A program made the translations under genes and the position numbers. A DNA stretch of 29,481 nucleotides from a plasmid. Below are positions 99-27,416 of this stretch, piece after piece. The first letter of the stretch is position 1. Every line of letters starts with the position of its first letter. The notes below the pieces were generated by a model. The model did no database searches, was not told the DNA's origin, and saw only the letters and a program-made list of their open reading frames with translations. Where the stretch lies: sequence record NZ_CP114643.1. One strand, given 5' to 3'.

Positions 99-797
99 AT
101 GCAAAATACAAACCTTGAGGTTAAGGCCCATACAAAACCATTAAAGAAATATCATAGTAGATATTACAAAATAATATCAATACTTAGATACTTTCAAAAT
201 AATGCACTTAAATACAATCAAACAGCAATTTTAAATGCATTAAACACTTTTCTATTGAAAGATGGTCTTAAACAAATTACACTTAGAACTTTAAGAAAAG
301 ATTTAGCATTTCTATGCAATAAAGGCATTATTAAAAAAACTTTATTAAGACTGGGTGAAGGGAACGGAACATATATAAGATACACAGTAACTAAATACAG
401 TGTTAAAAATTTAAAAAAAATACTCAAAGCTAAAGAAGAAATTGTAGAACATGACGCAAACTCAATATACAAATTCACAAAAGAAACACAGAAAAAATAT
501 TACTTACAAAACAAGGAGATTAAAATTTTTAAACGTAAAAATGCAACCAAAAATGTCAGTCAATATATAACTAATAATAGATATATAAATAATAAAGAAA
601 AAAAAGAAAGAGAAACAAAAAATGAAGAAATAAACAATACAGATTATCTAATAAGGAATGTGTCTAAATGGAAAACAATGAGATATTTAGACAAAATAGA
701 AGAAAATGAAAACAAAAAAAGATACGAAGATAATATGCTAAAAACTAAAAAATGGTTAGAAACCTCAAATATAGAAAATAATACTTACAAGATTTAA
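99..797 (+). CDS. PF57/62-like plasmid replication/maintenance protein (first gene of the Borrelia four-gene partition cluster)
   Basis: 232-aa lysine-rich ORF with RBS AAGGAG. Position and size match the PF57/62 - PF50 - PF32 - PF49 order of Borrelia plasmids. N-terminus MQNTN is shared with the ERF-like gene at 2965. Confidence 0.5.
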   Translation: MQNTNLEVKAHTKPLKKYHSRYYKIISILRYFQNNALKYNQTAILNALNTFLLKDGLKQITLRTLRKDLAFLCNKGIIKKTLLRLGEGNGTYIRYTVTKYSVKNLKKILKAKEEIVEHDANSIYKFTKETQKKYYLQNKEIKIFKRKNATKNVSQYITNNRYINNKEKKERETKNEEINNTDYLIRNVSKWKTMRYLDKIEENENKKRYEDNMLKTKKWLETSNIENNTYKI

Positions 798-827
798 GGG
801 ATAGAAAACAAATTTTAAGGAAAAAAC

Positions 828-1400
828 ATGAAAAACTCGTTGAAAAAATTAAAGGAGAAGAAGTCAGAAATTAAGTTAAAAGAAAAAATAAAAAATACTT
901 TCTCTAAAATAGAAAAAGTAAAAACCAAAACAATGTATCACACAAAGGTATTTAATGATCTTTTTACTTTCGGAATTAGTCAAAAAGAAGAAGGCAAATT
1001 CTTTATAGCCTTAAGAGGTTTGTTTGACAATGAAAATAGAAGTACATTTCACTTGTTTAGCATTAAGGATCGTAATGACAAATTTTTGGGCATGTTTTAT
1101 GGATTTAGGAGACTCAAGAACTCAATTCTGCTCAGATATAAAGATAACATAAAACAATCTAGTGAAGTTATAACAATATATAAACCCTATTACATAGAGT
1201 TTAGATTTAAAAAAGGTAGTATCTTTTGTTATATCAAAGCAATTCATGCCTTAACTAAAAAAGAAAAATTAGAAAAAAATTATGCTCAGAATCTATTGGA
1301 AAGAATTATTACCTTAGAAAACGAGGTGTACAAATTTTATAATAAAAAAAGACCAGATGGAGGGATTATAACTAAATGGATAAAAAAAAACCAGAAATAA
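828..1400 (+). CDS. PF50-like plasmid maintenance protein
   Basis: 190-aa ORF immediately upstream of the ParA gene and overlapping it, RBS AAGGAAAAAAC. Synteny with the Borrelia PF50 position. Confidence 0.45.
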   Translation: MKNSLKKLKEKKSEIKLKEKIKNTFSKIEKVKTKTMYHTKVFNDLFTFGISQKEEGKFFIALRGLFDNENRSTFHLFSIKDRNDKFLGMFYGFRRLKNSILLRYKDNIKQSSEVITIYKPYYIEFRFKKGSIFCYIKAIHALTKKEKLEKNYAQNLLERIITLENEVYKFYNKKRPDGGIITKWIKKNQK

Positions 1401-2140
1401 TCACTATTGCATCAATTAAAGGTGGTGTTGGGAAAAGTACAAGTGCCATCATATTTGCAACTTTATTAGCAAAGAAATACAAAGTATTATTAATTGACAT
1501 TGATACACAAGCATCAACTACTAGTTATTATCATGATAAACTGATAAAAGATAATATTAATATTGTAAATATAAATATCTATAAAGTCTTAAATGAAACA
1601 TTAGATATTAACGATTCAATCGTTAATATAAGGGACAATCTGGATTTTATTCCAAGTTATATTCATTTACATAAATTTGTTAGAGAATCTATTCCTTTAA
1701 AAGAATTAAAACTAAAAGAATGCTTATTTTTTTTGAAAAAGAAATATGACTATATAATATCGGATACTAATCCTAGTTTGGATGCTACATTAGCTAATGC
1801 TTTAATATGCAGTAATTATATAATAGTACCAATGACAGCAGAGAAATGGGCAGTTGAAAGCCTAGAATTAATAGAATTTTATATGAAAGAATTAAGACTA
1901 AAACTTACAATTTTTATTCTTATAACAAGATTTAAGAAAAATAATACACATAAAGAATTACTGGAATATATACAATCTAAAAAGGGATTTTTAGGTTTTA
2001 TCCATGAAAGAGAAGATTTGAATAAACGAATATCAAAAAATGATATTTTTGATTTAAATAGAGATTATATAAGAGATTATGAAAGATCCTTGGATAACTT
2101 TCTAAATAAAAAATCAAATAGTGCGTTTAACGCACTATAA
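1376..2140 (+). CDS. ParA-type partition ATPase, Borrelia PF32 family
   Basis: N-terminus MDKKKPEIITIASIKGGVGKSTSAIIFA carries the deviant Walker A (KGGVGKST) typical of ParA/Soj and closely resembles Borrelia PF32 N-termini. Length 254 aa. Confidence 0.85.
   Translation: MDKKKPEIITIASIKGGVGKSTSAIIFATLLAKKYKVLLIDIDTQASTTSYYHDKLIKDNINIVNINIYKVLNETLDINDSIVNIRDNLDFIPSYIHLHKFVRESIPLKELKLKECLFFLKKKYDYIISDTNPSLDATLANALICSNYIIVPMTAEKWAVESLELIEFYMKELRLKLTIFILITRFKKNNTHKELLEYIQSKKGFLGFIHEREDLNKRISKNDIFDLNRDYIRDYERSLDNFLNKKSNSAFNAL
2118..2138. promoter_or_regulatory. Perfect 21-bp palindrome ATAGTGCGTT-T-AACGCACTAT (10-bp arms) covering the last codons of ParA, 13 bp upstream of the PF49-like start
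   Basis: Seen directly. GC-rich island in AT-rich DNA. Candidate centromere-like (parS-type) site, operator or hairpin attenuator. Confidence 0.5.
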
Positions 2141-2151
2141 AAGGAGCAAAA

Positions 2152-2724
2152 ATGAAAAATGTTGTTTTAAGTAGTAGAATTCTAGATACTAACGAAAATA
2201 CAAAATCATTTGAATTGAAAAATAAAAATTTGGATCGTTATAATGAATTAAAAGAAAAACTTAAACAAAATGCTAGAAAAGAAATTTATTATAAAGTAGA
2301 GAACATTAGGATTTTAAAAGAAATAAAAGATAATGAGTATTATAAATTAGATGGCCACAAAAATTTTGATAACTTTATTAAGAGTTATAGAATGGCTAAA
2401 ACTCAAGTGTATGCCTATTTAAGATTAGCAAATGCTATAGAAGAAGGAATGCTAGCAGAGCAGTATATAATTGAAAATGGTATTAATGAGTCACTTGCAA
2501 TGATAAAAAATAAGGAAAGTGTAAAAATAAAGAAGTTAAGACGAAATCCAATAAAACCGTTGAGGTTTCAACTTAAAAGCCAAGATAGTTATAATTTTTA
2601 TAAGGAGCATTCTAAATTTACAGCATTTATATTGGATACACTTTTTTCAAATGATAAGAATTATTTGGATAAATTATTCAAACAATATTCTGGTTTAAAG
2701 TTAAAAAATGATCAATTTAAATGA
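2152..2724 (+). CDS. PF49-like protein (putative ParB-analogue/BpaB-like DNA-binding partner of PF32)
   Basis: 190-aa ORF directly after ParA with RBS AAAGGAG. Fourth position of the Borrelia partition cluster. Family assignment is by synteny and size only. Confidence 0.45.
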   Translation: MKNVVLSSRILDTNENTKSFELKNKNLDRYNELKEKLKQNARKEIYYKVENIRILKEIKDNEYYKLDGHKNFDNFIKSYRMAKTQVYAYLRLANAIEEGMLAEQYIIENGINESLAMIKNKESVKIKKLRRNPIKPLRFQLKSQDSYNFYKEHSKFTAFILDTLFSNDKNYLDKLFKQYSGLKLKNDQFK

Positions 2725-2820
2725 GTAACTTGAAAAATTCTAATTATTTTGATACTATTCTGTCAGGTTGTATTGAATATTTTAATACTCCGGAAATAGT
2801 AATTTTATGAACTTTAGTAG

Positions 2821-2870
2821 GTTCTATTGATGATTCTAAATTAGAATTATGAATAGAACTTGCTTTTTTT
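2821..2870 (+). terminator. Putative rho-independent terminator downstream of the partition operon
   Basis: Imperfect 16-bp inverted repeat GTTCTATTGATGATTC / GAATTATGAATAGAAC (14/16 complementary, 7-nt loop) followed by TTGCTTTTTTT. Confidence 0.35.
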
Positions 2871-2936
2871 ATTTATATGTTTAATTTTTTTGTTAATAGC
2901 ATTGTAAATTTTTAGTTTTTGTTATACTATTTTTGT

Positions 2937-2957
2937 TAGATATCTATTTCTAAGGAG
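2937..2957 (+). promoter_or_regulatory. Conserved element TAGATATCTATTTCTAAGGAG (10-bp perfect palindrome TAGATATCTA + RBS) upstream of the ERF-like gene
   Basis: Seen directly. Same element at 29409..29429 (-) and a degenerate copy at 75..92. Preceded by GTTTTTGTTATACTATTTTTGTTA, which matches the window end plus window start. Confidence 0.5.
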
Positions 2958-2964
2958 TTTTAAT

Positions 2965-3957
2965 ATGCAAAACACAAATAATATTACAAAAACAAATATG
3001 CAAGATGTAATGAGTAACCAAGGTTTAATAATGCATGAGAAACAATCAAAGCTAGAATTTCTAAAGTCACTGCACACTTTACAAATGCAATTAAGTGGTG
3101 TAGGTAAGAACCTTACTGGCTTTGGATATAAATATCAAGATTTTAATGAAATAATAAGAGAAATCAAGCAAGTTATAAAAACCAATAATCTAGATATTGG
3201 ATTTACTCAATGCCCAACTATAAAAAATTTTGATGGTAACATAGTTAATGTTATTGAAACAACATTTTATAGTACCAAGACTGGGTATAGAGAATCATTT
3301 GATACACCAATATATACAGAAGAATTGAAATCTATAGAATGGAAAAGTAAAAATACCTTTCCTCAACTTGTAGGTTCATGCATAACCTACTTTAAACGCT
3401 ATGCACTTGTAGCTTACCTATCAATTGAGAGTGAGGTAGATACTGACGCAAATACCTTAGGGACTAGACAAGATGCAACAGAGGAACAGTCTAAGGGTGT
3501 AGAAATCCCACCTGTAGATGTGAAATCTAACAATTTGACTAATGATAAGGTAGAAAAAGACGTTAAATCTAATAATCCAGTATCTGTAAATAAAGCTAAT
3601 TCAATTAAGTTTAGTTGCTATAGGAGTCTTCTCATAGCAGCACGTAGAATGCATAAGTATTTGGTTAATAAACCATTTGATAGTATAGCGCAGATAAATG
3701 CATATTTAAATGCTATAAAGCTGGGAGATGATTCATCCTTATTAGAGTATTTTAATATGCATAAAGCCTTAAGGAATGTTAACTATTGGATAGAACTCAT
3801 AAGAGAATATATATTTAAGAATAATCATCTTATGAGAAGGTTAGATCAATTTGAGGCCTTTGTAGCCCTTATGCAACCTAAATACGAGGATAGTCCACTG
3901 AAATTATTTGGATTCTTGTCAGTAGAGAACGAGTTGAGATATTTATTTAATGCATAG
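2965..3957 (+). CDS. ERF-family single-strand annealing (recombination) protein
   Basis: Motif LSGVGKNLTGFGYKYQDFNEIIREIKQVI matches the ERF signature (FGKYKY..EDIL..V) of P22 Erf-like SSAPs. 330 aa. N-terminus MQNTNNITKTN is shared with neighbouring genes. Confidence 0.55.
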   Translation: MQNTNNITKTNMQDVMSNQGLIMHEKQSKLEFLKSLHTLQMQLSGVGKNLTGFGYKYQDFNEIIREIKQVIKTNNLDIGFTQCPTIKNFDGNIVNVIETTFYSTKTGYRESFDTPIYTEELKSIEWKSKNTFPQLVGSCITYFKRYALVAYLSIESEVDTDANTLGTRQDATEEQSKGVEIPPVDVKSNNLTNDKVEKDVKSNNPVSVNKANSIKFSCYRSLLIAARRMHKYLVNKPFDSIAQINAYLNAIKLGDDSSLLEYFNMHKALRNVNYWIELIREYIFKNNHLMRRLDQFEAFVALMQPKYEDSPLKLFGFLSVENELRYLFNA

Positions 3958-3976: not shown

Positions 3977-3994
3977 AAGCCCCATTAGGGGCTT
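3977..3994. terminator. Bidirectional rho-independent terminator (AAGCCCC-ATTA-GGGGCTT) between convergent genes
   Basis: Perfect 7-bp GC-rich stem with a 4-nt loop. Flanked by A-rich sequence on the left and T-rich on the right. Lies between the + strand stop at 3957 and the - strand stop at 4000. Confidence 0.55.
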
Positions 3995-3999
3995 TAATA

Positions 4000-4362
4000 T
4001 TAATTTTTGAGTTTTGAATACCTCATGTATACAGACTGGGCAATAGGTTTAGTAATGCTGATGTAATCTTTGAGTAGCTTGATATTGAATAGTAATGAAT
4101 CAATTGTGTGATCATGTTTAAGAGTGGAAGAATCAAAGTAAGTAAATTTAGGATAGTTTGTGTCGTTAATAAACTTCTTTCTAGTTCGAGTTAAGAATAC
4201 TTGTAGGTACATGATGTAATCCGTAAGCTTAGCTTCATAAGTACTTAAGTCTTTAATAGTGTGTTTTATAGGAGGAGTTGGTTCATCCATTAGTGAGGCG
4301 ATAGTTGTGCAAGAGAATATAAATAATATAGCTAGATTGATAAATAAATAATTTTTTTTCAA
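4000..4362 (-). CDS. Small lipoprotein, last gene of the late operon (Rev-like position)
   Basis: N-terminus MKKNYLFINLAILFIFSCTT is a signal peptide plus lipobox-like Cys, typical of spirochaetal lipoproteins. 120 aa. Confidence 0.45.
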   Translation of the reverse strand: MKKNYLFINLAILFIFSCTTIASLMDEPTPPIKHTIKDLSTYEAKLTDYIMYLQVFLTRTRKKFINDTNYPKFTYFDSSTLKHDHTIDSLLFNIKLLKDYISITKPIAQSVYMRYSKLKN

Positions 4363-4363
4363 C

Positions 4364-4708
4364 TTATGACTCCTTTAATATCTTGATGTAAGTACTCATA
4401 ATTTTATTTCGCTTAGCTCTGAGTTGAGAGATGTATTTTAGATAATCATCATTATCGTAGTAATCACTTGAGTGTTCTATAATTTCGATGTTAAGGCGTA
4501 AGATTTCTTCAATCTCTGAGAGTAGTTTGATAGCTTCTTTTTGTTCCATTCTATTTATACTAGCTTCATAAAGGGAGTATACGTAATTAACTACTTTAAG
4601 GAAGATATTAGTGTAGTGAGCAGTATTTTTGTCTTGATATTTATTTTGTAAAATCTGTGTAAATTTAGTTAGGATTTCAATACCTAGTTTGGCATTACTT
4701 AAATTCAT
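4364..4708 (-). CDS. Hypothetical protein in the lysis region
   Basis: 114-aa ORF tightly coupled (4-nt overlap) to the upstream gene. Helical, charged composition. Confidence 0.3.
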   Translation of the reverse strand: MNLSNAKLGIEILTKFTQILQNKYQDKNTAHYTNIFLKVVNYVYSLYEASINRMEQKEAIKLLSEIEEILRLNIEIIEHSSDYYDNDDYLKYISQLRAKRNKIMSTYIKILKES

Positions 4709-5025
4709 TTATTCTCCTCCTCATGTGATGTAATGTACATAGGTAACCTCATGTTGTCTGGATTAGTATTAACTTGCAGTATAAATTGATTGATTTTGTT
4801 TTGAATAGGTTCTAAATCAGACTTTATTTGTGGAGTTAACGCATTATCTAGTATTTCCATATTTTTAGTGTAAATGTACGTGTATTGTGTGTAGAATTCC
4901 CTGAGAAGAGAGAATGCTTTATGAGAAGTCTCATCAAACGTACCATCCTTAAAATTAGAAAATGCATCAATTAAATTTGAGATTGCCTGTAAAGAATTCT
5001 CCAAATGTTTTCTGTCTAGTCGCAT
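4705..5025 (-). CDS. BlyB-like soluble lysis-accessory protein (positional call)
   Basis: 106-aa hydrophilic ORF immediately downstream of the holin-like gene and overlapping it, as for blyA/blyB on cp32. Confidence 0.3.
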   Translation of the reverse strand: MRLDRKHLENSLQAISNLIDAFSNFKDGTFDETSHKAFSLLREFYTQYTYIYTKNMEILDNALTPQIKSDLEPIQNKINQFILQVNTNPDNMRLPMYITSHEEENK

Positions 5026-5207
5026 GTTGTTCCTCCCTGATTATTTTTGTCTTTGTTGTTTTTTAGTTTATCTATGATGATGCTAATGATGTCTTTAAGC
5101 ACAGGTTTAAGTAGGAAACCAATTCCCAAGATTAAACCTGCAATAATTAGTAACTTATTACTATCAATTCCAAGTAAAAGTTGTATTAAGTTATTTGTGT
5201 CATTCAT
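5016..5207 (-). CDS. Holin-like small membrane protein (BlyA-like)
   Basis: 63 aa. One clear transmembrane segment LLIIAGLILGIGFLL followed by a highly charged C-terminus (KLKNNKDKNNQ). Sits at the end of the tail module, where cp32 carries blyA. Confidence 0.45.
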   Translation of the reverse strand: MNDTNNLIQLLLGIDSNKLLIIAGLILGIGFLLKPVLKDIISIIIDKLKNNKDKNNQGGTTCD

Positions 5208-5281
5208 GTGGGCTTTAACCTCTCCTTTAAAAATTTGTGTAGATATAAATATACAACAAAAACTAGTTTTTGCTACATTAT

Positions 5282-6088
5282 TTATAATTTTACCAGTACT
5301 GGTACCCTATTTCCGTTGATATATCCACGCTTTTGTATATACCATCCTCTTAGAACTGGACATAAGATATCTATATAAGCATTCCTAGCAGAGTAATAAT
5401 ATATTGTTGACTTTTGTGATTGAGAAGAATATTGGGTAGTTACTTTTTTGATGTAGTTAGAAGAGCCAGCATTAATTGTAATATCAGCATAAATATCTAA
5501 GTAAATGGGTTTGTCATCATCAGATTCATAGAAAACAAGACTTACCTCTTGAGTTGAGTACTGTGAGGTCATATCCAGTACGTAAGCTTGGCTTTTAAGA
5601 GAAGACACATAAATATATGTACTTGAAGTTCTACTCTTTGATGAGGTGAAGCCTGAAGGGATTCCCGTTAAGTACTCAGGTATTTGTGCTCGTTGTAGAG
5701 TGCTGTAACTTGATGTTACAAAGTAATTATCTTTACTTAAGCTGTAAGTTGAGAGCCCACTACCAAGTTTGTCTTTAACCTTACTATAAGTACTAGAGAT
5801 ACTACTAGAATCATCATTTAAGAATTTAGTAAGAATTTTATTATACACTTGAGTTATAAAATTATCATCTTGTAATAGTTCTGTAGCAATAGTGCTTTTG
5901 ATAATGTCTTTAAAGTAGTTAAGACCCTCACCTTTAAAAGTTTTATCTTTAGCACTCTGAAGGAAGTTCTCAAAGGTAATAGCATTACAGCTAGCAACCC
6001 CATCATCAAGTAATAATAAATCTGTATTTTTAACTGATTGTATTCTATTTAAATCTTTAATTTGAATAGAATCATCTTGTTGAGTCAT
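5282..6088 (-). CDS. Tail fibre / receptor-binding protein candidate
   Basis: 268 aa. Ser/Thr/Tyr-rich C-terminal half. Last structural gene after baseplate J/I-like genes, the position of fibre genes in Mu/P2-like modules. Confidence 0.35.
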   Translation of the reverse strand: MTQQDDSIQIKDLNRIQSVKNTDLLLLDDGVASCNAITFENFLQSAKDKTFKGEGLNYFKDIIKSTIATELLQDDNFITQVYNKILTKFLNDDSSSISSTYSKVKDKLGSGLSTYSLSKDNYFVTSSYSTLQRAQIPEYLTGIPSGFTSSKSRTSSTYIYVSSLKSQAYVLDMTSQYSTQEVSLVFYESDDDKPIYLDIYADITINAGSSNYIKKVTTQYSSQSQKSTIYYYSARNAYIDILCPVLRGWYIQKRGYINGNRVPVLVKL

Positions 6089-13855: not shown

Positions 13856-14155
13856 TTACCTCTCCTTTGGTGTTTCTATTATTTGTACATTGGCTTTAAA
13901 TGAACTGCTGGCACAGTATGCTAAGCTTTCATGCGTAGAGTGTAGTTTTAAGGCACCACTTTGATTTAAGTTTGACGTATTATAAATATATATGTTAATT
14001 AAAGTAATATACTCATTAGAATCAATGATAAATGTGTTTTGTTTTCCGTAATAAAGGAAATCACTAAATTGTGAGTATAACTCTAGTACTCTTGTATATG
14101 CATTTTTTTGAGGTTTGTTTTGTATAAAACAAATGAAATACAGTGTAAAGAGCAT
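13856..14155 (-). CDS. Hypothetical head-tail joining/tail completion protein (start uncertain)
   Basis: 99-aa ORF whose first about 30 codons overlap the upstream gene in another frame. No internal Met, so the true start may be a non-ATG codon. Confidence 0.2.
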   Translation of the reverse strand: MLFTLYFICFIQNKPQKNAYTRVLELYSQFSDFLYYGKQNTFIIDSNEYITLINIYIYNTSNLNQSGALKLHSTHESLAYCASSSFKANVQIIETPKER

Positions 14156-14390
14156 ACGTCATTTCATTGACGTTATCATAAAATGCACCTGTACGCATGT
14201 TATGATTAAATAAACCCTCAACATTATCAAACTTAATAACTAAAACATTTTCATTATCTACTGTAAGCTTTGACATATATGGATGGTTGTACGTGTTAAT
14301 GACTTGTATATCAAACTGTGTAACAAATTCTTTAAAGTTTTTCAGTATAGTAATTATGTATTTTTGTATATTGTAAATATCAAGTATCAT
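14064..14390 (-). CDS. Head-tail connector/tail completion protein candidate
   Basis: 108 aa, translationally coupled (4-nt overlap) in a run of four 108-127 aa genes between the capsid candidate and the sheath. Confidence 0.3.
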   Translation of the reverse strand: MILDIYNIQKYIITILKNFKEFVTQFDIQVINTYNHPYMSKLTVDNENVLVIKFDNVEGLFNHNMRTGAFYDNVNEMTYALYTVFHLFYTKQTSKKCIYKSTRVILTI

Positions 14391-15510: not shown

Positions 15511-16482
15511 TTAACTTTGCTTAATATTAACTCTTAATATGCTTTTTCCTGTTGCAATAAGTCCGCCAAGCACAAAGTCAAGATATGAATATGCAACATC
15601 AGTTGAATCTTTATCTATTTGTTCATTGGGCATTGGTAACATGTACTTACTAGGTTTGAATTTAATTAGTTCTGCATTTAATGGATATATAAGTATTTGG
15701 TTTGATAGTAAGTTACTTGTTTGCACACAAACGTCTTTTCTATTATTAACAGCTTTAATAGTCTTAATTAGCAAATCTTCCCATGAATCAGTTGAAGAAC
15801 AAATATGAGAATTTGATGATGATGGTATTGCATATGACTTAACAAGTTTTAAACTTGTTTTAGGGTCAACTAGTACCATCATAGGAGTTGAGAACTCATC
15901 ACCAAGTTCTAACTTTGAGAGACCCTCTTCAATCTTTTCAAATATCTTATCCATTTTATCTTTATTGGAAGCCTCAACATCTTCTTTAATCTGATCTGGT
16001 ATATTAAGTAAGCCGTACATATTAGGAAGCAGACGCTTTTGATTCTTACCATCTTTTTTTATTGTGACAGTACCAGTTAAAATAAAGTGATTTATAAGTT
16101 TAATAATCTCATTACTAGCAAGTTTATACGCCTCACCAAATGGAAGTAAATTGTTATTTACATCACCTGCGTAATCATCATTTTGGTAATACTGCTGTGA
16201 GGATTGCTTTAAATGTCTAAACTTGTATTGTAATTTAAGATAGTGCAGTTGAGCTGTATCTGACCTAAAAATAGTTGAGATACTCCTAACTTCATTAATT
16301 AATGTTGTAGGATTAGCATTAAGAAATGCGTCCCATTTAATTGTTTTCAGGTATCCTGTCTTTAAGTCAACGTCCTCTATTTGCTCACTAGCAAACCACT
16401 CATAAAATACTGGTAATTTAATTTGGGGAAATATATTTGATATTTCTTTAGCATAATAGTTTTGATCATATAAATCTGACAT
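15511..16482 (-). CDS. Major capsid protein candidate
   Basis: 323 aa (HK97-fold size range). Follows the scaffold-like gene and paralog trio and precedes the connector genes. Called by position only. Confidence 0.3.
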   Translation of the reverse strand: MSDLYDQNYYAKEISNIFPQIKLPVFYEWFASEQIEDVDLKTGYLKTIKWDAFLNANPTTLINEVRSISTIFRSDTAQLHYLKLQYKFRHLKQSSQQYYQNDDYAGDVNNNLLPFGEAYKLASNEIIKLINHFILTGTVTIKKDGKNQKRLLPNMYGLLNIPDQIKEDVEASNKDKMDKIFEKIEEGLSKLELGDEFSTPMMVLVDPKTSLKLVKSYAIPSSSNSHICSSTDSWEDLLIKTIKAVNNRKDVCVQTSNLLSNQILIYPLNAELIKFKPSKYMLPMPNEQIDKDSTDVAYSYLDFVLGGLIATGKSILRVNIKQS

Positions 16483-20461: not shown

Positions 20462-21211
20462 TTACTTATTTAATAATGAATACACTATTGAGATTAATGT
20501 TAAGAATATCCCTACATTAAGTGTGATAAGAGTTCCAAACATCCATCCATGTAATTTTAATGTACCTTTAATTTCTGAGGTTGATTTGTCTATCTTACTA
20601 TCAAGAGTATTTATCTTACTATCAAGCTCAGTCCTATTTATTTCCATATCTTTTCTAACAAGAGCAACTTCATTACTTACAGAGGCAATCTCAGATTTTA
20701 AGCTTGTCTCTACTTTGTCAATTTTATTATCAAGATCTCTAATATCAGATTTTAAGCTAGCTTCAACATTGTCAATTTTATTATCAAGATCTCTAATATC
20801 AGATTTTAATTCAGTTCTAACATTCTCGATTTTATTATTTAAGTTATTCTCAACGTTATCTATTTTATTATCAAGTTCTCTAATATCGGCTTTTAAGCTA
20901 GCCTCAACGTTATCTATTTTATTATCAAGTTCATTAAATTTATTATCAATTTTATTATTAAGTTCAGTATGGACTGCTTTAATCTCAGATTTTAAACTAA
21001 CTTCTACCTTTTCAATATCAGATTTTAAGCTAGCTTCAACTTTTGCAAGCTTAATGTCAAAGTTTTCTTTAAGATACTCAATATCTTTGTGAGTAAGCTC
21101 ATTTTTATAATACCTGTAAGATAAATCCTCAGCAATCTCCTGATTAATACCCGCTTTAATAAGCTCAGCTAATACCATTTGTCTTGTAATAATAGTTTGA
21201 GGCAAACCCAT
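20462..21211 (-). CDS. Bdr-like repeat protein: coiled-coil KID-repeat protein with C-terminal membrane anchor
   Basis: Central array of 11/18-residue repeats (LDNKIDNVEASLKSDIRD x several). C-terminal hydrophobic segment WMFGTLITLNVGIFLTLISIVYSLL. This architecture (KID-containing repeats plus C-terminal anchor) is that of Borrelia Bdr proteins. Confidence 0.5.
   Translation of the reverse strand: MGLPQTIITRQMVLAELIKAGINQEIAEDLSYRYYKNELTHKDIEYLKENFDIKLAKVEASLKSDIEKVEVSLKSEIKAVHTELNNKIDNKFNELDNKIDNVEASLKADIRELDNKIDNVENNLNNKIENVRTELKSDIRDLDNKIDNVEASLKSDIRDLDNKIDKVETSLKSEIASVSNEVALVRKDMEINRTELDSKINTLDSKIDKSTSEIKGTLKLHGWMFGTLITLNVGIFLTLISIVYSLLNK
20640..21060. repeat. Imperfect tandem DNA repeats (unit about 54 bp, with 33-bp sub-units) encoding the Bdr-like repeat region
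   Basis: Seen directly, e.g. TCTCTAATATCAGATTTTAAGCTAGCTTCAAC.TT.TC.ATTTTATTATCAAGATC recurs at 20739..20790, 20791..20840, 20870..20925 and 20990..21050 with substitutions. Confidence 0.5.
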
Positions 21212-21252: not shown

Positions 21253-22611
21253 TTATATGAACCTTATTTTAGTAAAATGTGCTTTTAAAGAACTCCTACC
21301 CAAACTAAGTAACATATATAGAGCAGATAATGCATCAATTGAATCATCATCACCCTTACCATCACCTTTATACTTGTAAATATCAGCAATAGCAGATTTA
21401 CTACTAAAATCTAGGATACTTAAATTTGATGAGTTAATAGGACCTATTAAAGTAGCAATTCTAGTAAATTTATTACTTATAGGTTTAATAGGAGCAATTC
21501 TGTAATGATGATTCATATGTGCCCTAAGATTAATAAACACTTTAGTAATACTACCTTTCCCAGTAGTATTATCCCTATCTTCAATATAAAGTGTATGCAC
21601 ATTTAAGTTTTCTAGTATAGTCATAATTGTATTTAATACTCTTGGGTCACTTGCTGGAAGTTTGTCTTGAAATATAAATGCATAATACTTGTTATCTACT
21701 CGCTCTAATACACAAAGTGCACTGTTATCACAACCAATACTATAAGCAGGTTCTAGGTAGGCTATTGGGGATTTAAATTCATATTTTTCTTTACTTATAA
21801 GATTAACATTAGTAAATATAGCCTCATTAGATGCAACCCATTCTCCTAAGAGCACTCTTGCTTTATATGTTGGTTGGTCTTTATATAGTTGTTCTTGTGT
21901 CTTAATAAAGTCTAAGGGTATTAATGCGTTATCATATGTTGTAAAGTTATATGTAGCATAAATATCAGTATTATCAATATAATCAGTTTTAAAGTAATGC
22001 TCAGGATGATCTGGGTTGGTATCAAAGATGATACTTTGCTTTCCAACTCTGAGTCTTTTAAGACATTCTATTAATGTTTCTTTATGAAGAGTAGTTGCTT
22101 CATTAACATAGATGATAGCAGAATTAGAGCCTCTGAAGCGTTCAAAGTCACTTGCCTTATCTCCACCATATAAATTAACTCTTAAGGAATCTACTTCAAA
22201 ATAAGAAGTATTGGAATACTTGGGTACAAATGATATATTAAGCATACAAGCAATTTTATCAAATTGCCCCAATACATTAAGTTCTAAAGATTTTTGTGAA
22301 TTGCCCAAAATAAAATTATTGGTATCTTGCTTGTATAAATGTCTACCAGTAAGCAGTATTTTTAAGAATAGATAACATGCTAAGAATGTTTTACCACTGG
22401 CAATCCCTCCACAAAGAATAATCTTAGTTTGCTTATGTTCTTCAATACTATTTATAACTGCTAATTGTTTTGGTGTTAAATGTGTTTGCTCAAAGTTTTT
22501 AAAGTTAACATCTAAACTTTTAGGCTTAATGTAATCTTGTATATCAATCCCATATTTATGTTTATATTTTTTTCTGTATTTAACAAACAAACTACTCTTG
22601 TATATATCCAT
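21253..22611 (-). CDS. Terminase large subunit
   Basis: 452 aa. Walker A motif ILCGGIASGKTF near the N-terminus and acidic nuclease-like C-terminal half. Immediately downstream of the HTH small-subunit-like gene at the head of the late operon. Confidence 0.7.
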   Translation of the reverse strand: MDIYKSSLFVKYRKKYKHKYGIDIQDYIKPKSLDVNFKNFEQTHLTPKQLAVINSIEEHKQTKIILCGGIASGKTFLACYLFLKILLTGRHLYKQDTNNFILGNSQKSLELNVLGQFDKIACMLNISFVPKYSNTSYFEVDSLRVNLYGGDKASDFERFRGSNSAIIYVNEATTLHKETLIECLKRLRVGKQSIIFDTNPDHPEHYFKTDYIDNTDIYATYNFTTYDNALIPLDFIKTQEQLYKDQPTYKARVLLGEWVASNEAIFTNVNLISKEKYEFKSPIAYLEPAYSIGCDNSALCVLERVDNKYYAFIFQDKLPASDPRVLNTIMTILENLNVHTLYIEDRDNTTGKGSITKVFINLRAHMNHHYRIAPIKPISNKFTRIATLIGPINSSNLSILDFSSKSAIADIYKYKGDGKGDDDSIDALSALYMLLSLGRSSLKAHFTKIRFI

Positions 22612-22614
22612 AAG

Positions 22615-23163
22615 TTATTCTTTGTATTTAGTAATATCAATAACAGATTTAAGTTTGAGGAGCACTTTATAACACAGATCCATTTTTTTAGTTTCAATTT
22701 TTTTTTCAAGCTCTTTAAGTTCACTTATCTTTAAATTAAGACTGAAAGAATCATTAGAATCTGCATTTGTAATATCTTTCCTACACTGCAGTATTTCATT
22801 ATGTAATTTGTCTGCCTGCTTAACATCATCTTGTAATTCTAGCTGACAATACTTATTAAAGGATGAAAGAAAGGTTAATGCAATATTGTTTTTCTCAATC
22901 TCTACTTGATTTTTAAGTCTATTAGCGTGAGTTTCAGTCTCTAAACTTCGGGCAAGCATATTATTGAAAGTATCCTCACTAATAGTAAGCTTAGAGGTAC
23001 TAGTAACATAATTTGATTCATCTTTTAGGGATTTCCATTTGCGTCGCATCTTACCAACATTAACACGAGATACCCCCAATTCTTTAGCGATTTCTGCATC
23101 CTTAAGTCTACCCTCTTTAAAGTAGACTATATAATCATTGTAGGTTTTCTTAAGTCTGCTCAT
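22615..23163 (-). CDS. Terminase small subunit-like HTH protein
   Basis: Start reassigned to MSRLKK (ATG 23163, RBS AAAGGAT). Helix-turn-helix AEIAKELGVSRVNVGKMRRKW followed by a coiled coil. First gene of the operon, 4 nt before TerL. Confidence 0.4.
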   Translation of the reverse strand: MSRLKKTYNDYIVYFKEGRLKDAEIAKELGVSRVNVGKMRRKWKSLKDESNYVTSTSKLTISEDTFNNMLARSLETETHANRLKNQVEIEKNNIALTFLSSFNKYCQLELQDDVKQADKLHNEILQCRKDITNADSNDSFSLNLKISELKELEKKIETKKMDLCYKVLLKLKSVIDITKYKE

Positions 23164-23325
23164 ATCCTTTAACTTTAATTTAATAAATAAGTTAACATAA
23201 ACTATACACCAAAACAATAAAGTTTACAAAAACAATATTTTTATATAAAAGCAGATATACACATATAAGTAACTAGGTTATAATACTTAAATTAATTAAA
23301 TATTAAAATTTAAAGGAGAATATTT

Positions 23326-24249
23326 ATGAATAAATATATATATTGTTTAATACTATGTAGCATGTTACTTTTCTACTGTTGCGGAGAGCGTAATCCTATG
23401 CCAAAAGGGAATAACCTAACAAATGATTCTAATACTACCTTAAGTGCTGATGAACAACAAAAAGTTGATACTCTAATTTATGTATTTAAAAAAATGATAG
23501 AAAATGATAACCAATTGAACATGGAACAAAAAGAAAAATACAAAATGTTTGAAATTTGGTTATTAAAAGATACTCAAAAACAAAAAGAATTGGCTGATCA
23601 TTTTCAATATGTATACTATCTTTTAGACCAAGAAACAAAGCCACAACAAGCAAGCAACATACCTACTAAACAAATTATAGTAAATACTATTGATTGCGTA
23701 GCGTCAAATCAATGTGATGGCAGAAATGATGTGTACTCTTATCATCGAGATGATTCGATGACTGATGGAGAAAAAATAAAAAGTTTTTTTAGCAATCTTT
23801 TACACAATATACTTGACACACTTAAAAAGTCTAACAATAACATAAATACATATGAAGAAGTGTTTAAATATCTTAGATCAGAATTCGTTTCTCCAAACAA
23901 TGCTATTATTACGGGTTTATCAACCGATGAGACACTTAACAAAATGAGATTCAATAATCAACAAATAAAAGCAATAAGATTCTTGCAAGATAGTATAGGT
24001 AAGAGTAAACAACATATAAATAATTCAACATATATATCTTTTATAGTCTTAAGCAATTCAACGGTTAAACCGGCACTAGATTATATATATAATGAACTTT
24101 TAAAGTGTAATGAAAATCAACAAAGTATTGATAATTTTAATGAGGATTTACACAACTATTTTTGGTCTCTAGCTCCAAATAAAATTAATGATGAGACAAT
24201 AAAGCAATTACCAAATAAAGTGACTATTAAATGTGGAAATGCTAATTAA
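23326..24249 (+). CDS. Lipoprotein, 307 aa, function unknown (candidate lysogenic-conversion surface protein)
   Basis: RBS AAAGGAG. N-terminus MNKYIYCLILCSMLLFYCCGE is a signal peptide with lipobox-like Cys. Divergent from the late operon. Confidence 0.45.
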   Translation: MNKYIYCLILCSMLLFYCCGERNPMPKGNNLTNDSNTTLSADEQQKVDTLIYVFKKMIENDNQLNMEQKEKYKMFEIWLLKDTQKQKELADHFQYVYYLLDQETKPQQASNIPTKQIIVNTIDCVASNQCDGRNDVYSYHRDDSMTDGEKIKSFFSNLLHNILDTLKKSNNNINTYEEVFKYLRSEFVSPNNAIITGLSTDETLNKMRFNNQQIKAIRFLQDSIGKSKQHINNSTYISFIVLSNSTVKPALDYIYNELLKCNENQQSIDNFNEDLHNYFWSLAPNKINDETIKQLPNKVTIKCGNAN

Positions 24250-24730
24250 ATAAATTAAACACAAATAAAAAATATAATTAAGAAAGGAAATTTAAAATAG
24301 ACTCAAACAAAATTTGACAAATATAATAATCTAACCTTATAAAATCTTCATATATTACAGTTCACACTGCTAAGTATATTATTTTTTGCAAAAGCAAACT
24401 GATCAAAAAATAAAAGAAAAAACTATTATTTTAAATAATGATGACAATTAGAATTGTAATTCTTTATCTTGTATTTATTTATACTTGAAAACTACAAGAA
24501 CCTTGACCTCTATAAAGAGGGTCAAAAGAGTAAATATACAGGACTTAATCGGATCTCAAAACATATCTAAATAAAAGAAATCATCTAATATTCTCAACAA
24601 TTATAGACAAAATGTTTGCTCGCCTCAAAGATGAGCTATTATGTACTGAAAATAGCAGTAAACATTTAGATGGACTTACATCAAATTGGCAATAAACAAA
24701 TTATTAAAATAAAAATATAAGGAGATATAA

Positions 24731-25165
24731 ATGAAAATAATTAATTTTGTTTTAATTTTATCACTATTAATTAGTAGTTGTGGACAATATGAAAATGCGA
24801 ATAATGTTTCAAAAAGGAGATCTAAGAGAGACATAAAGCAACAAATAGACGAGGTTAAAAAAACACCTGAGGAAGCATTAAAAGAGAAGTTAAGTGAAGA
24901 AGAAAAGGTAAATCTAGAGTTTTTAAAAGAAGCTTTAGGTGATGAGAGTAAATTTGGTCAGTTTTTAATCTTTGATGAATCTAAGATAAAATCTGCTCTT
25001 GAACATATAAAAGAACAACTTAAAAGTTGTAATGGTGATGCAGAAGGTGGTAAAGAAACGTTTAAAACTGTTGTACAAGGATACTTTAGCAAAATGGATG
25101 AAAGTACATTAAATGGGTTTAAAGATGGAGCAACAAGCACTTGTCAAGCAGGAGCAGGGGGATAA
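24731..25165 (+). CDS. mlp: Mlp-family (multicopy lipoprotein) lipoprotein
   Basis: MKIINFVLILSLLISSCG signal/lipobox, then EKLSEEEKVNLEFLKEALGDESKFGQFLIFDESKIKSALEHIKEQLKSCNGD...TFKTVVQG...GF...TSTC. This matches conserved Mlp blocks recalled from B. burgdorferi cp32. 144 aa. Confidence 0.75.
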   Translation: MKIINFVLILSLLISSCGQYENANNVSKRRSKRDIKQQIDEVKKTPEEALKEKLSEEEKVNLEFLKEALGDESKFGQFLIFDESKIKSALEHIKEQLKSCNGDAEGGKETFKTVVQGYFSKMDESTLNGFKDGATSTCQAGAGG

Positions 25166-25485
25166 ATAAAGAGATAAATAAAGCCAAAGGCTGAAAGTTA
25201 ATAAATAGGAAATTAAGAAAGAGAAATTAAGAAAGATGTAAAAAGAGAAAGCAGTATGAATTCCCAAAAAATAGAAAGAGCTAGAATAAATAGGAAGAGT
25301 AAAAGGATTAAGTAAATGGGATTAAGAAAGAGGGAAGTAAACAATTGGTTAACAATGGGTAAGAAGATAAGAATTGAGAAGAGAGACGTTACATTGCAAA
25401 GGTAAGAGATAAGGAAATGAAAAAAAGGTATGAAATAAAAGAATAGGAGATAAGGAAGTATATAAGTAAGTGTTAATATACTATA
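25166..25485 (+). repeat. About 320-bp purine-only (A/G about 85-90%) low-complexity tract on the + strand
   Basis: Seen directly. Degenerate AAGA/AAGAG/GGAA-type units, with only tiny ORFs on the + strand. Confidence 0.5.
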
Positions 25486-25658
25486 CATTTATTCCTAAAT
25501 TATCAAAACATACTCTTAAGTAGTATAAAACTAATCTTTAACACACATACTATATGCAATGACCCCCCTCTAAATTTGACTCTATAAACAAATATTTGCT
25601 AATATTATAGTAACTATTTATACATATTTTTATAACCTTTACTTAAAATCTAAATTAC

Positions 25659-26429
25659 ATGAAAAGGCAAGATTATCTTAAGGAAAAAATTAATCAACTC
25701 ACTAAGCAAAATGAACTCCTACTAAAAGAATCTCAACACTACAGGCAAGAATTAGAACAACTCAAAAGTAAATTAGACAAAAAAACTACTAAACCTCCCA
25801 AACCTAAACCTGTAAGGTTTTATCTTAACGACAAAACAACTAGACTTGTAAAACGTTGTATAGAAAAACTTAAAAGTATTGACCCAATATCTGGTTGGTT
25901 TGTATATATCCTCTCAATTACTGGTTGCAGGGGAGTAGAACTGCAAAACGTAAAACTTACCGATATTTCTAAAGAAATTAGCTCTGATGGTGAGGTTTTA
26001 TACTCACTTCGTGTTAATGTTGCAAAAAAGCGTAGTAATATCTGTATAAGAGAAGTAGTTGTTAGTGAACCTGAATTTGACTCTATTATGAGAATACACA
26101 AACACTATTTTGATGCTAAGGGTAAAGACAGTCGGCGTACATATCTCTTCCAAAAAAGCAAAATTAGATTCAAAGACAACAAGATTAATATAAATAAAAT
26201 AGCGGTTCAATTTAAATCATTACTTAAATCTTATGGATTTAAAGAGCGTAAATCACTACACCTATGCAGAAACATATTTATTGCCACCCTTAAATCTCGT
26301 GGGTACAACTCATTTGAAATAAAAGAGCTTATGAAATACTCCTCCACCTCAGAGATTGATAACGTTTATGGTCTCTCCAGTGCAAGTAAAATCCAGGCTT
26401 ACAAAGATATTAAATCCAGCTTGAAATAA
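25659..26429 (+). CDS. Small tyrosine recombinase (integrase/resolvase family) with N-terminal coiled coil
   Basis: Box I Arg in ITGCRGVELQNVKLTDI. Box II HLCRNIFIATLKSRGYNSFEIKELMKYSSTSEIDNVYG gives the H-x-x-R motif plus catalytic Tyr about 35 aa downstream. 256 aa, with no large N-terminal arm-binding domain. Confidence 0.55.
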   Translation: MKRQDYLKEKINQLTKQNELLLKESQHYRQELEQLKSKLDKKTTKPPKPKPVRFYLNDKTTRLVKRCIEKLKSIDPISGWFVYILSITGCRGVELQNVKLTDISKEISSDGEVLYSLRVNVAKKRSNICIREVVVSEPEFDSIMRIHKHYFDAKGKDSRRTYLFQKSKIRFKDNKININKIAVQFKSLLKSYGFKERKSLHLCRNIFIATLKSRGYNSFEIKELMKYSSTSEIDNVYGLSSASKIQAYKDIKSSLK

Positions 26430-26502
26430 TTTCCATTCTTGCTACATTTATAGTACAATTAAAACAACTTTAAAACAAAAAATCTCTATTTCTTCAATAT
26501 AA

Positions 26503-26530
26503 GGACACCAAGAGGTGGTGTTCTTATATA
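26503..26530 (+). terminator. Weak rho-independent terminator candidate after the recombinase gene
   Basis: GGACACCA-AGAGG-TGGTGTTC hairpin (8-bp stem with one G-U pair) followed by TTATATATAA. Confidence 0.25.
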
Positions 26531-26999
26531 TAATGAGCTAAAAACTATCAAAATACTTTTCAATAATTTATATTTTTGCTATAATATACTAACTATTATA
26601 ATGTTATTTAGTATCAACATTATTATTTTAATATTATCTTAAAATTTCTTTTTTTGTTACTCATAAGGGCATGCAAATGCTCTTTTGATTACTAAATATG
26701 CTTAAGCACATATCAAAACAACTTGATGCAATGATTATTTTTTGCTAAAATAATTTATCCTTAACCTATACAACCACATACCTCATACAAGAATAAATAT
26801 CCAATCTGGTTTTGGGTATCTATTCTTTTTCAAGTAAGTTATTTATTAAACTAATTAATATAATTATTAAACATTTCAAGGTGAACATAATGATTCTTTT
26901 TAATATTAATGTAAACTTAAAATTATCATTGAGGTATGTTGAGTAAAAAGATTTATAATTCTTTCTCTATAGCAATATTTCCTTCTCTATGTAATAGTT

Positions 27000-27416
27000 T
27001 CAATACTTTCTAAATATCCTCTTTGATGTAACCTGATAAGGAGTCCCTTTCTCTTTAAGCTTAAGTGAATCATATAGCACCTCAGAGTTATTAGTTGCTA
27101 TAAAGTGAGATCCAAAAGCTTTATCAAGCTTAACTTCACTCACTTCAAATTCATTTGATTTACTTACGTAATTCTTATACTCCCATCTAACATCACTCTT
27201 AATACCATAGTGCGCAAGTATCCTGCATGGGTTTAAAATAAAGCAATTACTCTTTATATATCCTAAATTAACAAATTTATTATAATTATAATTAATATCG
27301 GAAATAGTAAATTCTAAAGTCTTAAATTTACTTATATAGTAATGCAGGCATAATAAGTAACATCCAAATTTTTGTATTTCTTTCTTTAACTTTGGCTCAT
27401 TTTGTTTTATATTCAT
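27000..27416 (-). CDS. Hypothetical Cys/His-containing protein (possible Zn-binding or Cys-His hydrolase)
   Basis: 138 aa. C-x3-C-x-H (GCYLLCLHYY), then C-x6-C-x3-H (CFILNPCRILAH) and GSHF. Last gene of the exonuclease operon. Confidence 0.3.
   Translation of the reverse strand: MNIKQNEPKLKKEIQKFGCYLLCLHYYISKFKTLEFTISDINYNYNKFVNLGYIKSNCFILNPCRILAHYGIKSDVRWEYKNYVSKSNEFEVSEVKLDKAFGSHFIATNNSEVLYDSLKLKEKGTPYQVTSKRIFRKY

Follow-up and report, generated by a model that had tools for sequence, protein, structure and literature searches.

The cp32-type prophage plasmids of Lyme-group Borrelia are known to have variable regions at erp and at mlp, and in some of them a gene of 'mlp type 3' lies directly beside erp (PMC3303823). 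The cp32s of both Borrelia groups have mono- or bicistronic mlp loci; those of the relapsing-fever group have neither erp nor rev, and their replication and partition genes are reversed (PMC10016077). Among the cp30 plasmids of Borrelia miyamotoi, both the number of Mlp genes and the orientation of the PF32/49/50/57-62 cluster vary (PMC6945570). The Mlp lipoproteins themselves have been divided into two classes, and upregulation by RpoS is described for some Lyme mlp genes only (PMC6719511). We analysed the mlp locus of sequence record NZ_CP114643.1, a stretch of 29,481 bases (hereafter the window) that is an essentially complete circular B. miyamotoi plasmid of the cp30 prophage type. The locus is largely ordinary, being an mlp locus where one is expected, with near-identical proteins already annotated as Mlp. 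Its first gene encodes a 307-residue protein that we take, with a rough probability of 0.9, to be a two-domain member of the well-known Mlp family, encoded at the mlp position of relapsing-fever plasmids.

The locus holds two lipoprotein genes on the plus strand, encoding proteins of 307 residues (23326..24249) and 144 residues (24731..25165), while a third small open reading frame (ORF), of 120 residues, lies on the minus strand at the far end of the late operon (4000..4362). A preliminary description of this DNA had called these three ORFs at the same places and on the same strands, and its statement that the first two diverge from the head of the late operon agrees with the minus-strand position of DUF603 and the large terminase. 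The same description had proposed that the 307-residue protein, in which it recognised no known features, may represent a new surface antigen family.

Homology searches with the 307-residue protein led to a different result. A word-indexed search returned eight clusters, from B. miyamotoi or B. turicatae only, all named 'Mlp family lipoprotein' (one of them 98% identical) except for the exact match, which is named 'hypothetical protein'. An exhaustive phmmer search of 1.84 billion representatives gave 23 matching clusters, about ten of which are two-module proteins of 299-342 residues that align over their full length; the Pfam Mlp model (PF03304) recognises 15 of the 23. All ten clusters looked up by name, seven of them of 299-342 residues, are Mlp family lipoproteins, from B. 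miyamotoi, B. coriaceae, B. persica, B. parkeri and B. duttonii. A tblastn search against plasmids added B. turicatae and B. puertoricensis as carriers of the two-module form, and the annotated coding sequences (CDSs) beneath its matches were all Mlp genes but one 'hypothetical protein'. Two-module Mlps are widespread, occurring in at least seven relapsing-fever species. In these searches and scans the 307-residue protein showed no similarity to Erp (OspE/OspF/Elp), Rev or BppA, and no Pfam or NCBIfam family matched it.

The protein is built of two modules, each related to a different kind of Mlp. We refer to the long Mlps as Class II and the short ones as Class I, assignments that follow protein length and the published division (PMC6719511) rather than the original classification and are therefore given as 'Class I-like' and 'Class II-like'; by the same token, the 203-residue Mlp of B31 lp56 would be the Class II member of B31. 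The N-module (about residues 38-195, nucleotides 23437-23910) is Class II-like: residues 38-200 or so align by BLASTP with the whole mature length of the 203-residue lp56 protein (E 3e-13) and of a 207-residue B. hermsii Mlp (E 1e-18), and hhalign matched the module to single-module long Mlps with 99.6% probability. The C-module (about residues 200-304, nucleotides 23923-24237) is Class I-like. It aligns with the neighbouring 144-residue Mlp (BLASTP E 2e-8), scores 26.6 bits over residues 200-304 against a custom hidden Markov model (HMM) built from 59 short Mlps, and matches the short-Mlp profile with an hhalign probability of 98.9% (E 1.6e-17). An alignment of 50 sequences, made with short Mlps, places Cys261 and Cys303 in columns conserved at 90% or more, where they correspond to the conserved cysteine pair of the family. 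An AlphaFold2 model of the whole protein reached a predicted local distance difference test (pLDDT) score of 84 and a predicted template modelling (pTM) score of 0.77, and the predicted fold matches the solved structure of the Lyme short Mlp MlpA/BBP28 (6QBI). The output does not indicate the aligning module, and the level of identity suggests that it is the C-module. The C-module would thus resemble the Lyme short Mlp in profile, in both conserved cysteines and, as modelled, in fold, but differs from it in having no signal peptide or tether of its own.

These results bear directly on the proposal that the 307-residue protein founds a new surface-antigen family and that mobile lipoprotein cassettes have reached the late operon's two flanks. 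In favour of a new family, Pfam, NCBIfam and PHROGs found nothing for the protein. Against it, both halves proved homologous to Mlps by BLAST, HMM and hhalign, the fold matches 6QBI, and proteins 98% identical already bear the Mlp name. We consider the proposal as a whole very improbable; its claim of a new family is already refuted, and the protein belongs to a known family encoded in the standard relapsing-fever gene order (see below), the two outcomes that the preliminary description itself had named as refuting it.

Several observations nevertheless weigh against our two-domain Mlp assignment. The Pfam Mlp model gave no match to the protein even at E <= 10, nor did any NCBIfam model, and the corresponding protein of MN18-0001 cp30-2 (NZ_CP150061.1, 23222-24145; 307 residues, 99.7% identical by tblastn) is a 'hypothetical protein' in RefSeq. 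No direct similarity links the N-module to the C-module (hhalign E 0.5), the long-Mlp and short-Mlp profiles align over the signal peptide and tether only, and both modules carry the label 'Mlp domain' because a single Pfam model covers the two classes. The lipobox, read as LFYC-C or LLFY-C, is non-canonical: the residue before the Cys is usually A, G or S, and the Y or C of this protein falls outside that set. Finally, a literature search for data on B. miyamotoi Mlp expression, lipidation or localisation found none. The misses by Pfam and NCBIfam lie behind the inconsistent naming in RefSeq, where members of this subgroup appear either as 'hypothetical protein' or as 'Mlp family lipoprotein'.

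The profile comparisons could also suit a narrower interpretation, according to which only the C-terminal third is an Mlp domain and the N-terminal 160 residues form an unrelated helical domain that entered the Pfam family by way of Class II. Besides the two profile results just given, the N-module matched short Mlps by hhalign only at E 0.05 over 29 columns. However, PF03304 recognises the long Mlps strongly (E 7e-45 for the 203-residue lp56 protein and 9e-24 for the 207-residue B. hermsii protein), and it does so by aligning model positions 1-120 of 121 over their mature part, the very proteins that align with residues 38-200 of the 307-residue protein. We find this interpretation unlikely, and either way the N-module falls within what the field calls a Class II Mlp (PMC6719511).

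An internal tandem duplication was also considered and rejected, as hhalign detected no repeat between the N- and C-modules. Since the modules lack mutual similarity, we describe the two-domain Mlp as a fusion of two Mlp classes and not as a duplication. In the fused form, the N-module reaches the equivalent of the long-Mlp C-terminus ('TGLST' against 'AGLTA'), and the C-module begins approximately where the structured part of the short Mlps starts, so that the signal peptide and charged tether proper to a short Mlp are missing. The same modules occur unfused on B. hermsii lpN31, as adjacent genes for proteins of 207 and 141 residues, 30 bp apart; a single tblastn alignment of the 307-residue protein covers both. 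The module order, long then short, is the same, but B. hermsii has two genes where the window encodes one polypeptide.

The proximity of the B. hermsii genes, together with several indels elsewhere between the window and its closest record, might argue that the 307-residue ORF arose by a recent accidental fusion, is an artefact of assembly or is a pseudogene of two adjacent mlp genes, lacking a function of its own. Opposed to this, full-length forms of 299-342 residues, 30-98% identical, are present in seven or more relapsing-fever species, which implies that the open frame has long been maintained. In addition, many independent B. miyamotoi assemblies have the ORF intact, and the structural model is confident and compact at the pLDDT and pTM given above. 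An accidental or artefactual origin therefore seems to us extremely improbable, and we retain the maintained two-domain Mlp.

The signal regions were read from the sequence and judged by the rule summarised in PMC8877311. In all three proteins, a short charged N-region precedes an uncharged hydrophobic H-region of at least 10 residues, and a Cys stands at position 17-19. The 307-residue protein begins MNK, followed by YIYCLILCSML and LFYC-C19: the N-region is charged, the H-region has 10-11 uncharged residues with L or M as the last, and Cys18/Cys19 come next; its homologues have LYS-C or LYC-C in the same column. From these features we infer lipidation, and surface exposure by analogy with the surface-exposed Lyme Mlps. 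As a separate observation, the long Mlp of B. turicatae cp30-2 (NZ_CP073194.1) is annotated in RefSeq with 286 residues (MSNPQ...), from a start apparently placed too far downstream. An upstream in-frame ATG adds MTKFINYLVLCSTLILYCCGDRNP (4501-4587 of the compared stretch), a typical lipoprotein signal peptide that aligns with that of the window protein.

The second gene of the locus, at 24731..25165 on the plus strand, had been assigned to the Mlp family in the preliminary description, and this was borne out. Its 144-residue product matches PF03304 with E 1.9e-22 (80.6 bits, cut-off 21) and 6QBI_A (MlpA/BBP28) with E 1.1e-22, has a lipobox of LISS-Cys17, and belongs with 58 homologous clusters from relapsing-fever and Lyme species (Borrelia, Borreliella). 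By its sequence, it is a plain, short Class I-like member of the family, like the Lyme MlpA/BBP28. Neither PHROGs nor NCBIfam returned anything for any of the three lipoproteins of 307, 144 and 120 residues.

Between the two mlp genes lies a spacer of 481 bp, which contains the decayed remnant of a third, Class II-like mlp gene (24386..24695, plus strand). A tblastn search for further relics with the Mlp proteins collected at that point had returned the two genes only, and the relic surfaced through comparison with B. miyamotoi LB-2001 cp29. The final 133 bases of the spacer are 98.5% identical to cp29, where their counterpart is the 3' end of a 211-residue Class II-like mlp gene plus a short intergenic gap. 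The 3' piece of the relic (24606-24692) encodes DKMFARLKDELLCTENSSKHLDGLTSNWQ, identical at 29 of 29 positions to the C-terminus of the 211-residue cp29 Mlp (E 3e-17), and is directly followed by a stop codon (24693-24695). The 5' piece (24386-24478) is weak: it lies in another frame, contains a stop and resembles residues 45-75 of the cp29 protein (15 of 31 residues identical; E 0.004, from a search space that was very small). DNA homology to cp29 extends over 22600-23354 and 24598-26500 of the window, whereas 23355-24597 has no counterpart there. The homology breakpoints are sharp; one, at about 23354, falls a short way into the part of the first mlp gene that encodes the signal peptide, and the other, at about 24598, within the 3' end of the ancestral Class II-like mlp. 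The relic and these breakpoints fit a replacement of cassettes by recombination at a fixed position. The relic is a small new point of this analysis.

We then compared the order of genes. Followed in the late-operon direction, the window starts with DUF244, two small ORFs and DUF261 in the forward orientation; continues with the integrase, the 144-residue mlp and the 307-residue mlp in reverse; goes on forward with DUF603, the terminase, bdr and the portal gene through to blyA, blyB, a blyB-like gene and orfD; and closes in reverse with ERF, PF49, PF32, PF50 and PF57/62. In B31 cp32-1, DUF244 and DUF261 are likewise forward and the integrase reversed, but erpA, erpB and DUF643 then lead forward into DUF603 and the terminase; after orfD come revA in reverse, mlp forward and ERF in reverse, and then PF57/62, PF50, PF32 and PF49, forward, and bdr. 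B31 lp56 is similar to cp32-1, with bdr in place of revA. The earlier statement that the order in the window departs from that of B. burgdorferi cp32 is thus correct for both plasmids. The Lyme short mlp and the window mlp are both non-virion genes of cp32-type prophage plasmids, but the former is found in the orfD-ERF interval, beside revA or bdr, and the latter in the interval from DUF603 to the integrase, pointing away from the late operon.

Among relapsing-fever plasmids, by contrast with Lyme cp32, the arrangement in the window is the usual one. A segment of minus-strand DUF603, one or two plus-strand mlp genes and a plus-strand integrase, followed by DUF261 and, further on, DUF244 on the minus strand, recurs in several of them. 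The DUF603-integrase position is occupied by Mlps of 217 and 142 residues in B. miyamotoi LB-2001 cp30-2, of 211 and 142 residues in LB-2001 cp29, by a single long Mlp in B. turicatae cp30-2 and by a single Mlp of 321 residues in B. coriaceae cp30-1. DUF603 and Mlp features lay under a single joined match in 30 of the 30 plasmid matches listed, and the integrase that bounds the far side of the mlp position is its neighbour in B. turicatae and B. coriaceae too, and in further B. miyamotoi plasmids. B. turicatae cp30-2 also has the partition-ERF-orfD plasmid end in common with the window. The mlp position is conserved in relapsing-fever species, and the order is standard for B. miyamotoi and its relatives.

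In relapsing-fever plasmids, mlp takes the map position held by erp in Lyme cp32s and is oriented the other way round; the partition cluster is inverted as well. The locus for erp (ospE/ospF/elp) occupies an equivalent place, from the integrase to the start of the late operon, and is likewise a variable, recombining lipoprotein position (PMC3303823; PMC10016077). It differs in being read with the late operon, whereas the window mlp is read against it, and no sequence relationship between erp and the window mlp was found. The 'mlp type 3' gene beside erp in some Lyme cp32s provides a Lyme precedent for the position of the window mlp (PMC3303823).

The other half of the proposal introduced above, that lipoprotein cassettes are mobile modules placed at both flanks of the late operon, could draw on the unlike position of mlp in Lyme cp32 and on B. 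hermsii lpN31 and lp31. There, a long and short mlp pair (4330-5409 and 4830-5909 of the compared stretches, respectively) lies on a linear plasmid, outside any prophage context and among vsp/vlp antigenic-variation genes. Against mobility between flanks stand the order conserved in three relapsing-fever species and the gene at the other flank, which is orfD, found at the same position in Lyme cp32. As the same arrangement is seen across relapsing-fever cp30 plasmids, the departure from Lyme cp32 is a lineage difference, and hopping of cassettes between flanks is not shown. What survives of the mobile-module idea is variation in content by recombination, visible as one or two mlp genes, fused or split forms, the relic and the breakpoints; the position itself is fixed.

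The 120-residue protein (4000..4362, minus strand), which the preliminary description had presented as a third lipoprotein cargo gene ending the operon, is indeed encoded by the last gene, converging on ERF (2965..3957, plus strand). It is not cargo but OrfD (PF143/BBA14 family), the closing member of the conserved blyA-blyB-orfC-orfD lysis cassette. The protein matches Pfam Borrelia_orfD (PF02999) with E 2e-25 (89.5 bits, cut-off 27) and PDB 7QDV (BBA14/OrfD) with E 1.3e-25, and is 52% identical to the BBA14-family CDS 16087..16440 of B31 cp32-1 (BBP26 in PMC8877311). Its gene follows blyA, blyB and a blyB-like gene, as in B31 cp32-1 and lp56, and OrfD is known as the fourth gene of the '2.9 locus' ABCD operon (PMC8877311). 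Because it occupies the same place in the Lyme cp32 lysis operon, we regard it as a fixed cassette gene and not as variable cargo. Its N-terminus consists of MKK, the uncharged 10-residue H-region NYLFINLAIL, which ends in Leu, and FIFS-Cys18. The Lyme cp32 copies of OrfD are said to fail the rule on H-region length and last residue (PMC8877311), whereas the window copy satisfies it, and the 120-residue OrfD may therefore be a true lipoprotein.

A strong bidirectional terminator had been described beyond orfD. A GC-rich hairpin does exist between the convergent ERF and orfD genes (3977..3994), with a 7-bp stem, AAGCCCC-atta-GGGGCTT, and the 61-nucleotide stretch containing it folds at -15.2 kcal/mol (z = -2.65). 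However, no T-run adjoins the stem on either strand, and a terminator scan called nothing there, so the feature is weaker than had been described. At the ERF/orfD junction, B. turicatae carries a different hairpin with a T-run after it, and this lends mild support to a role of the window hairpin in termination; it may act as a transcription stop.

At the other end of the operon, a divergent intergenic region of 162 bp (23164..23325) separates DUF603 (minus strand) from the 307-residue gene (plus strand). A 44-bp block within it, 23192-23235 (TTAACATAAACT.TA.A.CAAAA.AAT.AA.TTTACAAAAACAAT), is shared by B. miyamotoi, B. turicatae and B. coriaceae; it overlaps a promoter-like site for the late operon on the minus strand (23229-23201) and is a candidate promoter or operator of that operon. 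The half nearer mlp varies more, with the TATAAT at 23279-23284 and the GGAG ribosome-binding site of the 307-residue gene (23315-23318) retained; the TATAAT belongs to a plus-strand promoter-like site ahead of that gene, TATACA-17-TATAAT (23256-23284). Promoter-like matches in this region were not commoner than in shuffled sequence, so these sites are positions for testing and not findings. We infer promoter function, and likewise independence of the mlp genes from late-operon transcription.

On the integrase-proximal side, downstream of the short mlp, 25166-25470 is a tract of about 300 bp that is strongly purine-rich (A/G) on the plus strand, with loosely repeated AAGAAAGAG/ATTAAGAAAGA motifs and no ORF or known element assigned. 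Lyme cp32 has its pac region on this side, upstream of erp (PMC11008901). A sensitive blastn search of the window with the upstream-of-erp region of B31 cp32-1 gave one match only, of 61% identity over the integrase 5' end and about 105 nucleotides upstream; DNA similarity of the tract to the pac region is negligible, and we do not claim a pac site. A repeat search of 23100-27100 returned short AT-rich matches only, probably due to chance.

The remaining genes are those of a cp30-type prophage plasmid. The late (virion and lysis) operon starts, in this plasmid type, with DUF603 (22615..23163, minus strand; Pfam DUF603 E 3.6e-32), its start at 23163 being mapped from the RefSeq start in a near-identical record. 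The large terminase subunit is its second gene (21253..22611, minus strand; Pfam Terminase_6N and Terminase_6C; NCBIfam PBSX terminase E 1.1e-45). The minus-strand block then passes through the portal gene, DUF228 and further cp32 virion genes before it reaches blyA, two blyB-like genes and the 120-residue ORF. A bdr gene lies within it at 20462-21211, between terminase and portal, as it does in B. turicatae cp30-2. The phage tyrosine integrase (25659..26429, plus strand) scores 27.1 bits with Pfam Phage_integrase, exactly the gathering score, and corresponds to the PHROG 1 integrase. The PF57/62-PF50-PF32-PF49 partition cluster with ERF (99-3957) is inverted relative to Lyme cp32 and co-oriented with ERF, again as in B. 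turicatae cp30-2.

All 139 records matched in a plasmid search were Borrelia. A 3.1-kb region around the mlp locus is 99.7% identical to plasmid cp30-2 (29,483 bp) of B. miyamotoi strain MN18-0001, and the gene content is the same in the annotated record. Compared with that record, the DUF764 gene (13856-14390) is split by a frameshift in the window into overlapping ORFs of 99 and 108 residues, and a 323-residue ORF (15511-16482) that is intact in the window is given as two hypothetical proteins; both discrepancies are probably indel differences or sequencing errors. The 570 bp between the integrase and DUF261 (26430-26999) are without an ORF, whereas a complete gene for DNA adenine methylase occupies this place in B. 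coriaceae cp30-1 and a short fragment of one in B. turicatae cp30-2. An SSB gene lies further along in both of these plasmids, and none is annotated in the window. These differences suggest gene loss in B. miyamotoi.

The explanation that best accommodates these results is that we are dealing with the mlp locus of a B. miyamotoi prophage plasmid of the relapsing-fever cp32/cp30 type, and that this locus is a variable position for lysogenic-conversion genes, extending from the head of the late operon (DUF603, large terminase) to the integrase. It comprises three mlp-derived units: a fused Mlp, with a Class II-like module and then a Class I-like module shorn of its signal peptide and tether; the decayed remnant of a Class II-like mlp gene; and a short Class I-like Mlp. 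The genes point away from the late operon and use ribosome-binding sites of their own and probably one or more promoters of their own. By the Lyme analogy drawn above, their products should be exported, carry a lipid on the conserved Cys and be held in the membrane. Content varies among plasmids through homologous recombination in the conserved flanks, the position staying fixed across relapsing-fever species, with OrfD at the other end of the operon as a fixed member of the holin cassette.

The finding changes little, and its value lies in three modest points. For annotation, the curated Pfam and NCBIfam models miss the two-module subgroup of Mlps. As regards architecture, the long relapsing-fever Mlps are fusions of Class II-like and Class I-like modules, which is relevant to serodiagnostic antigens and to studies of Mlp function. 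Finally, the relic and the breakpoints point to cassette replacement beside the integrase, a parallel to the erp and mlp variable regions of the Lyme cp32s.

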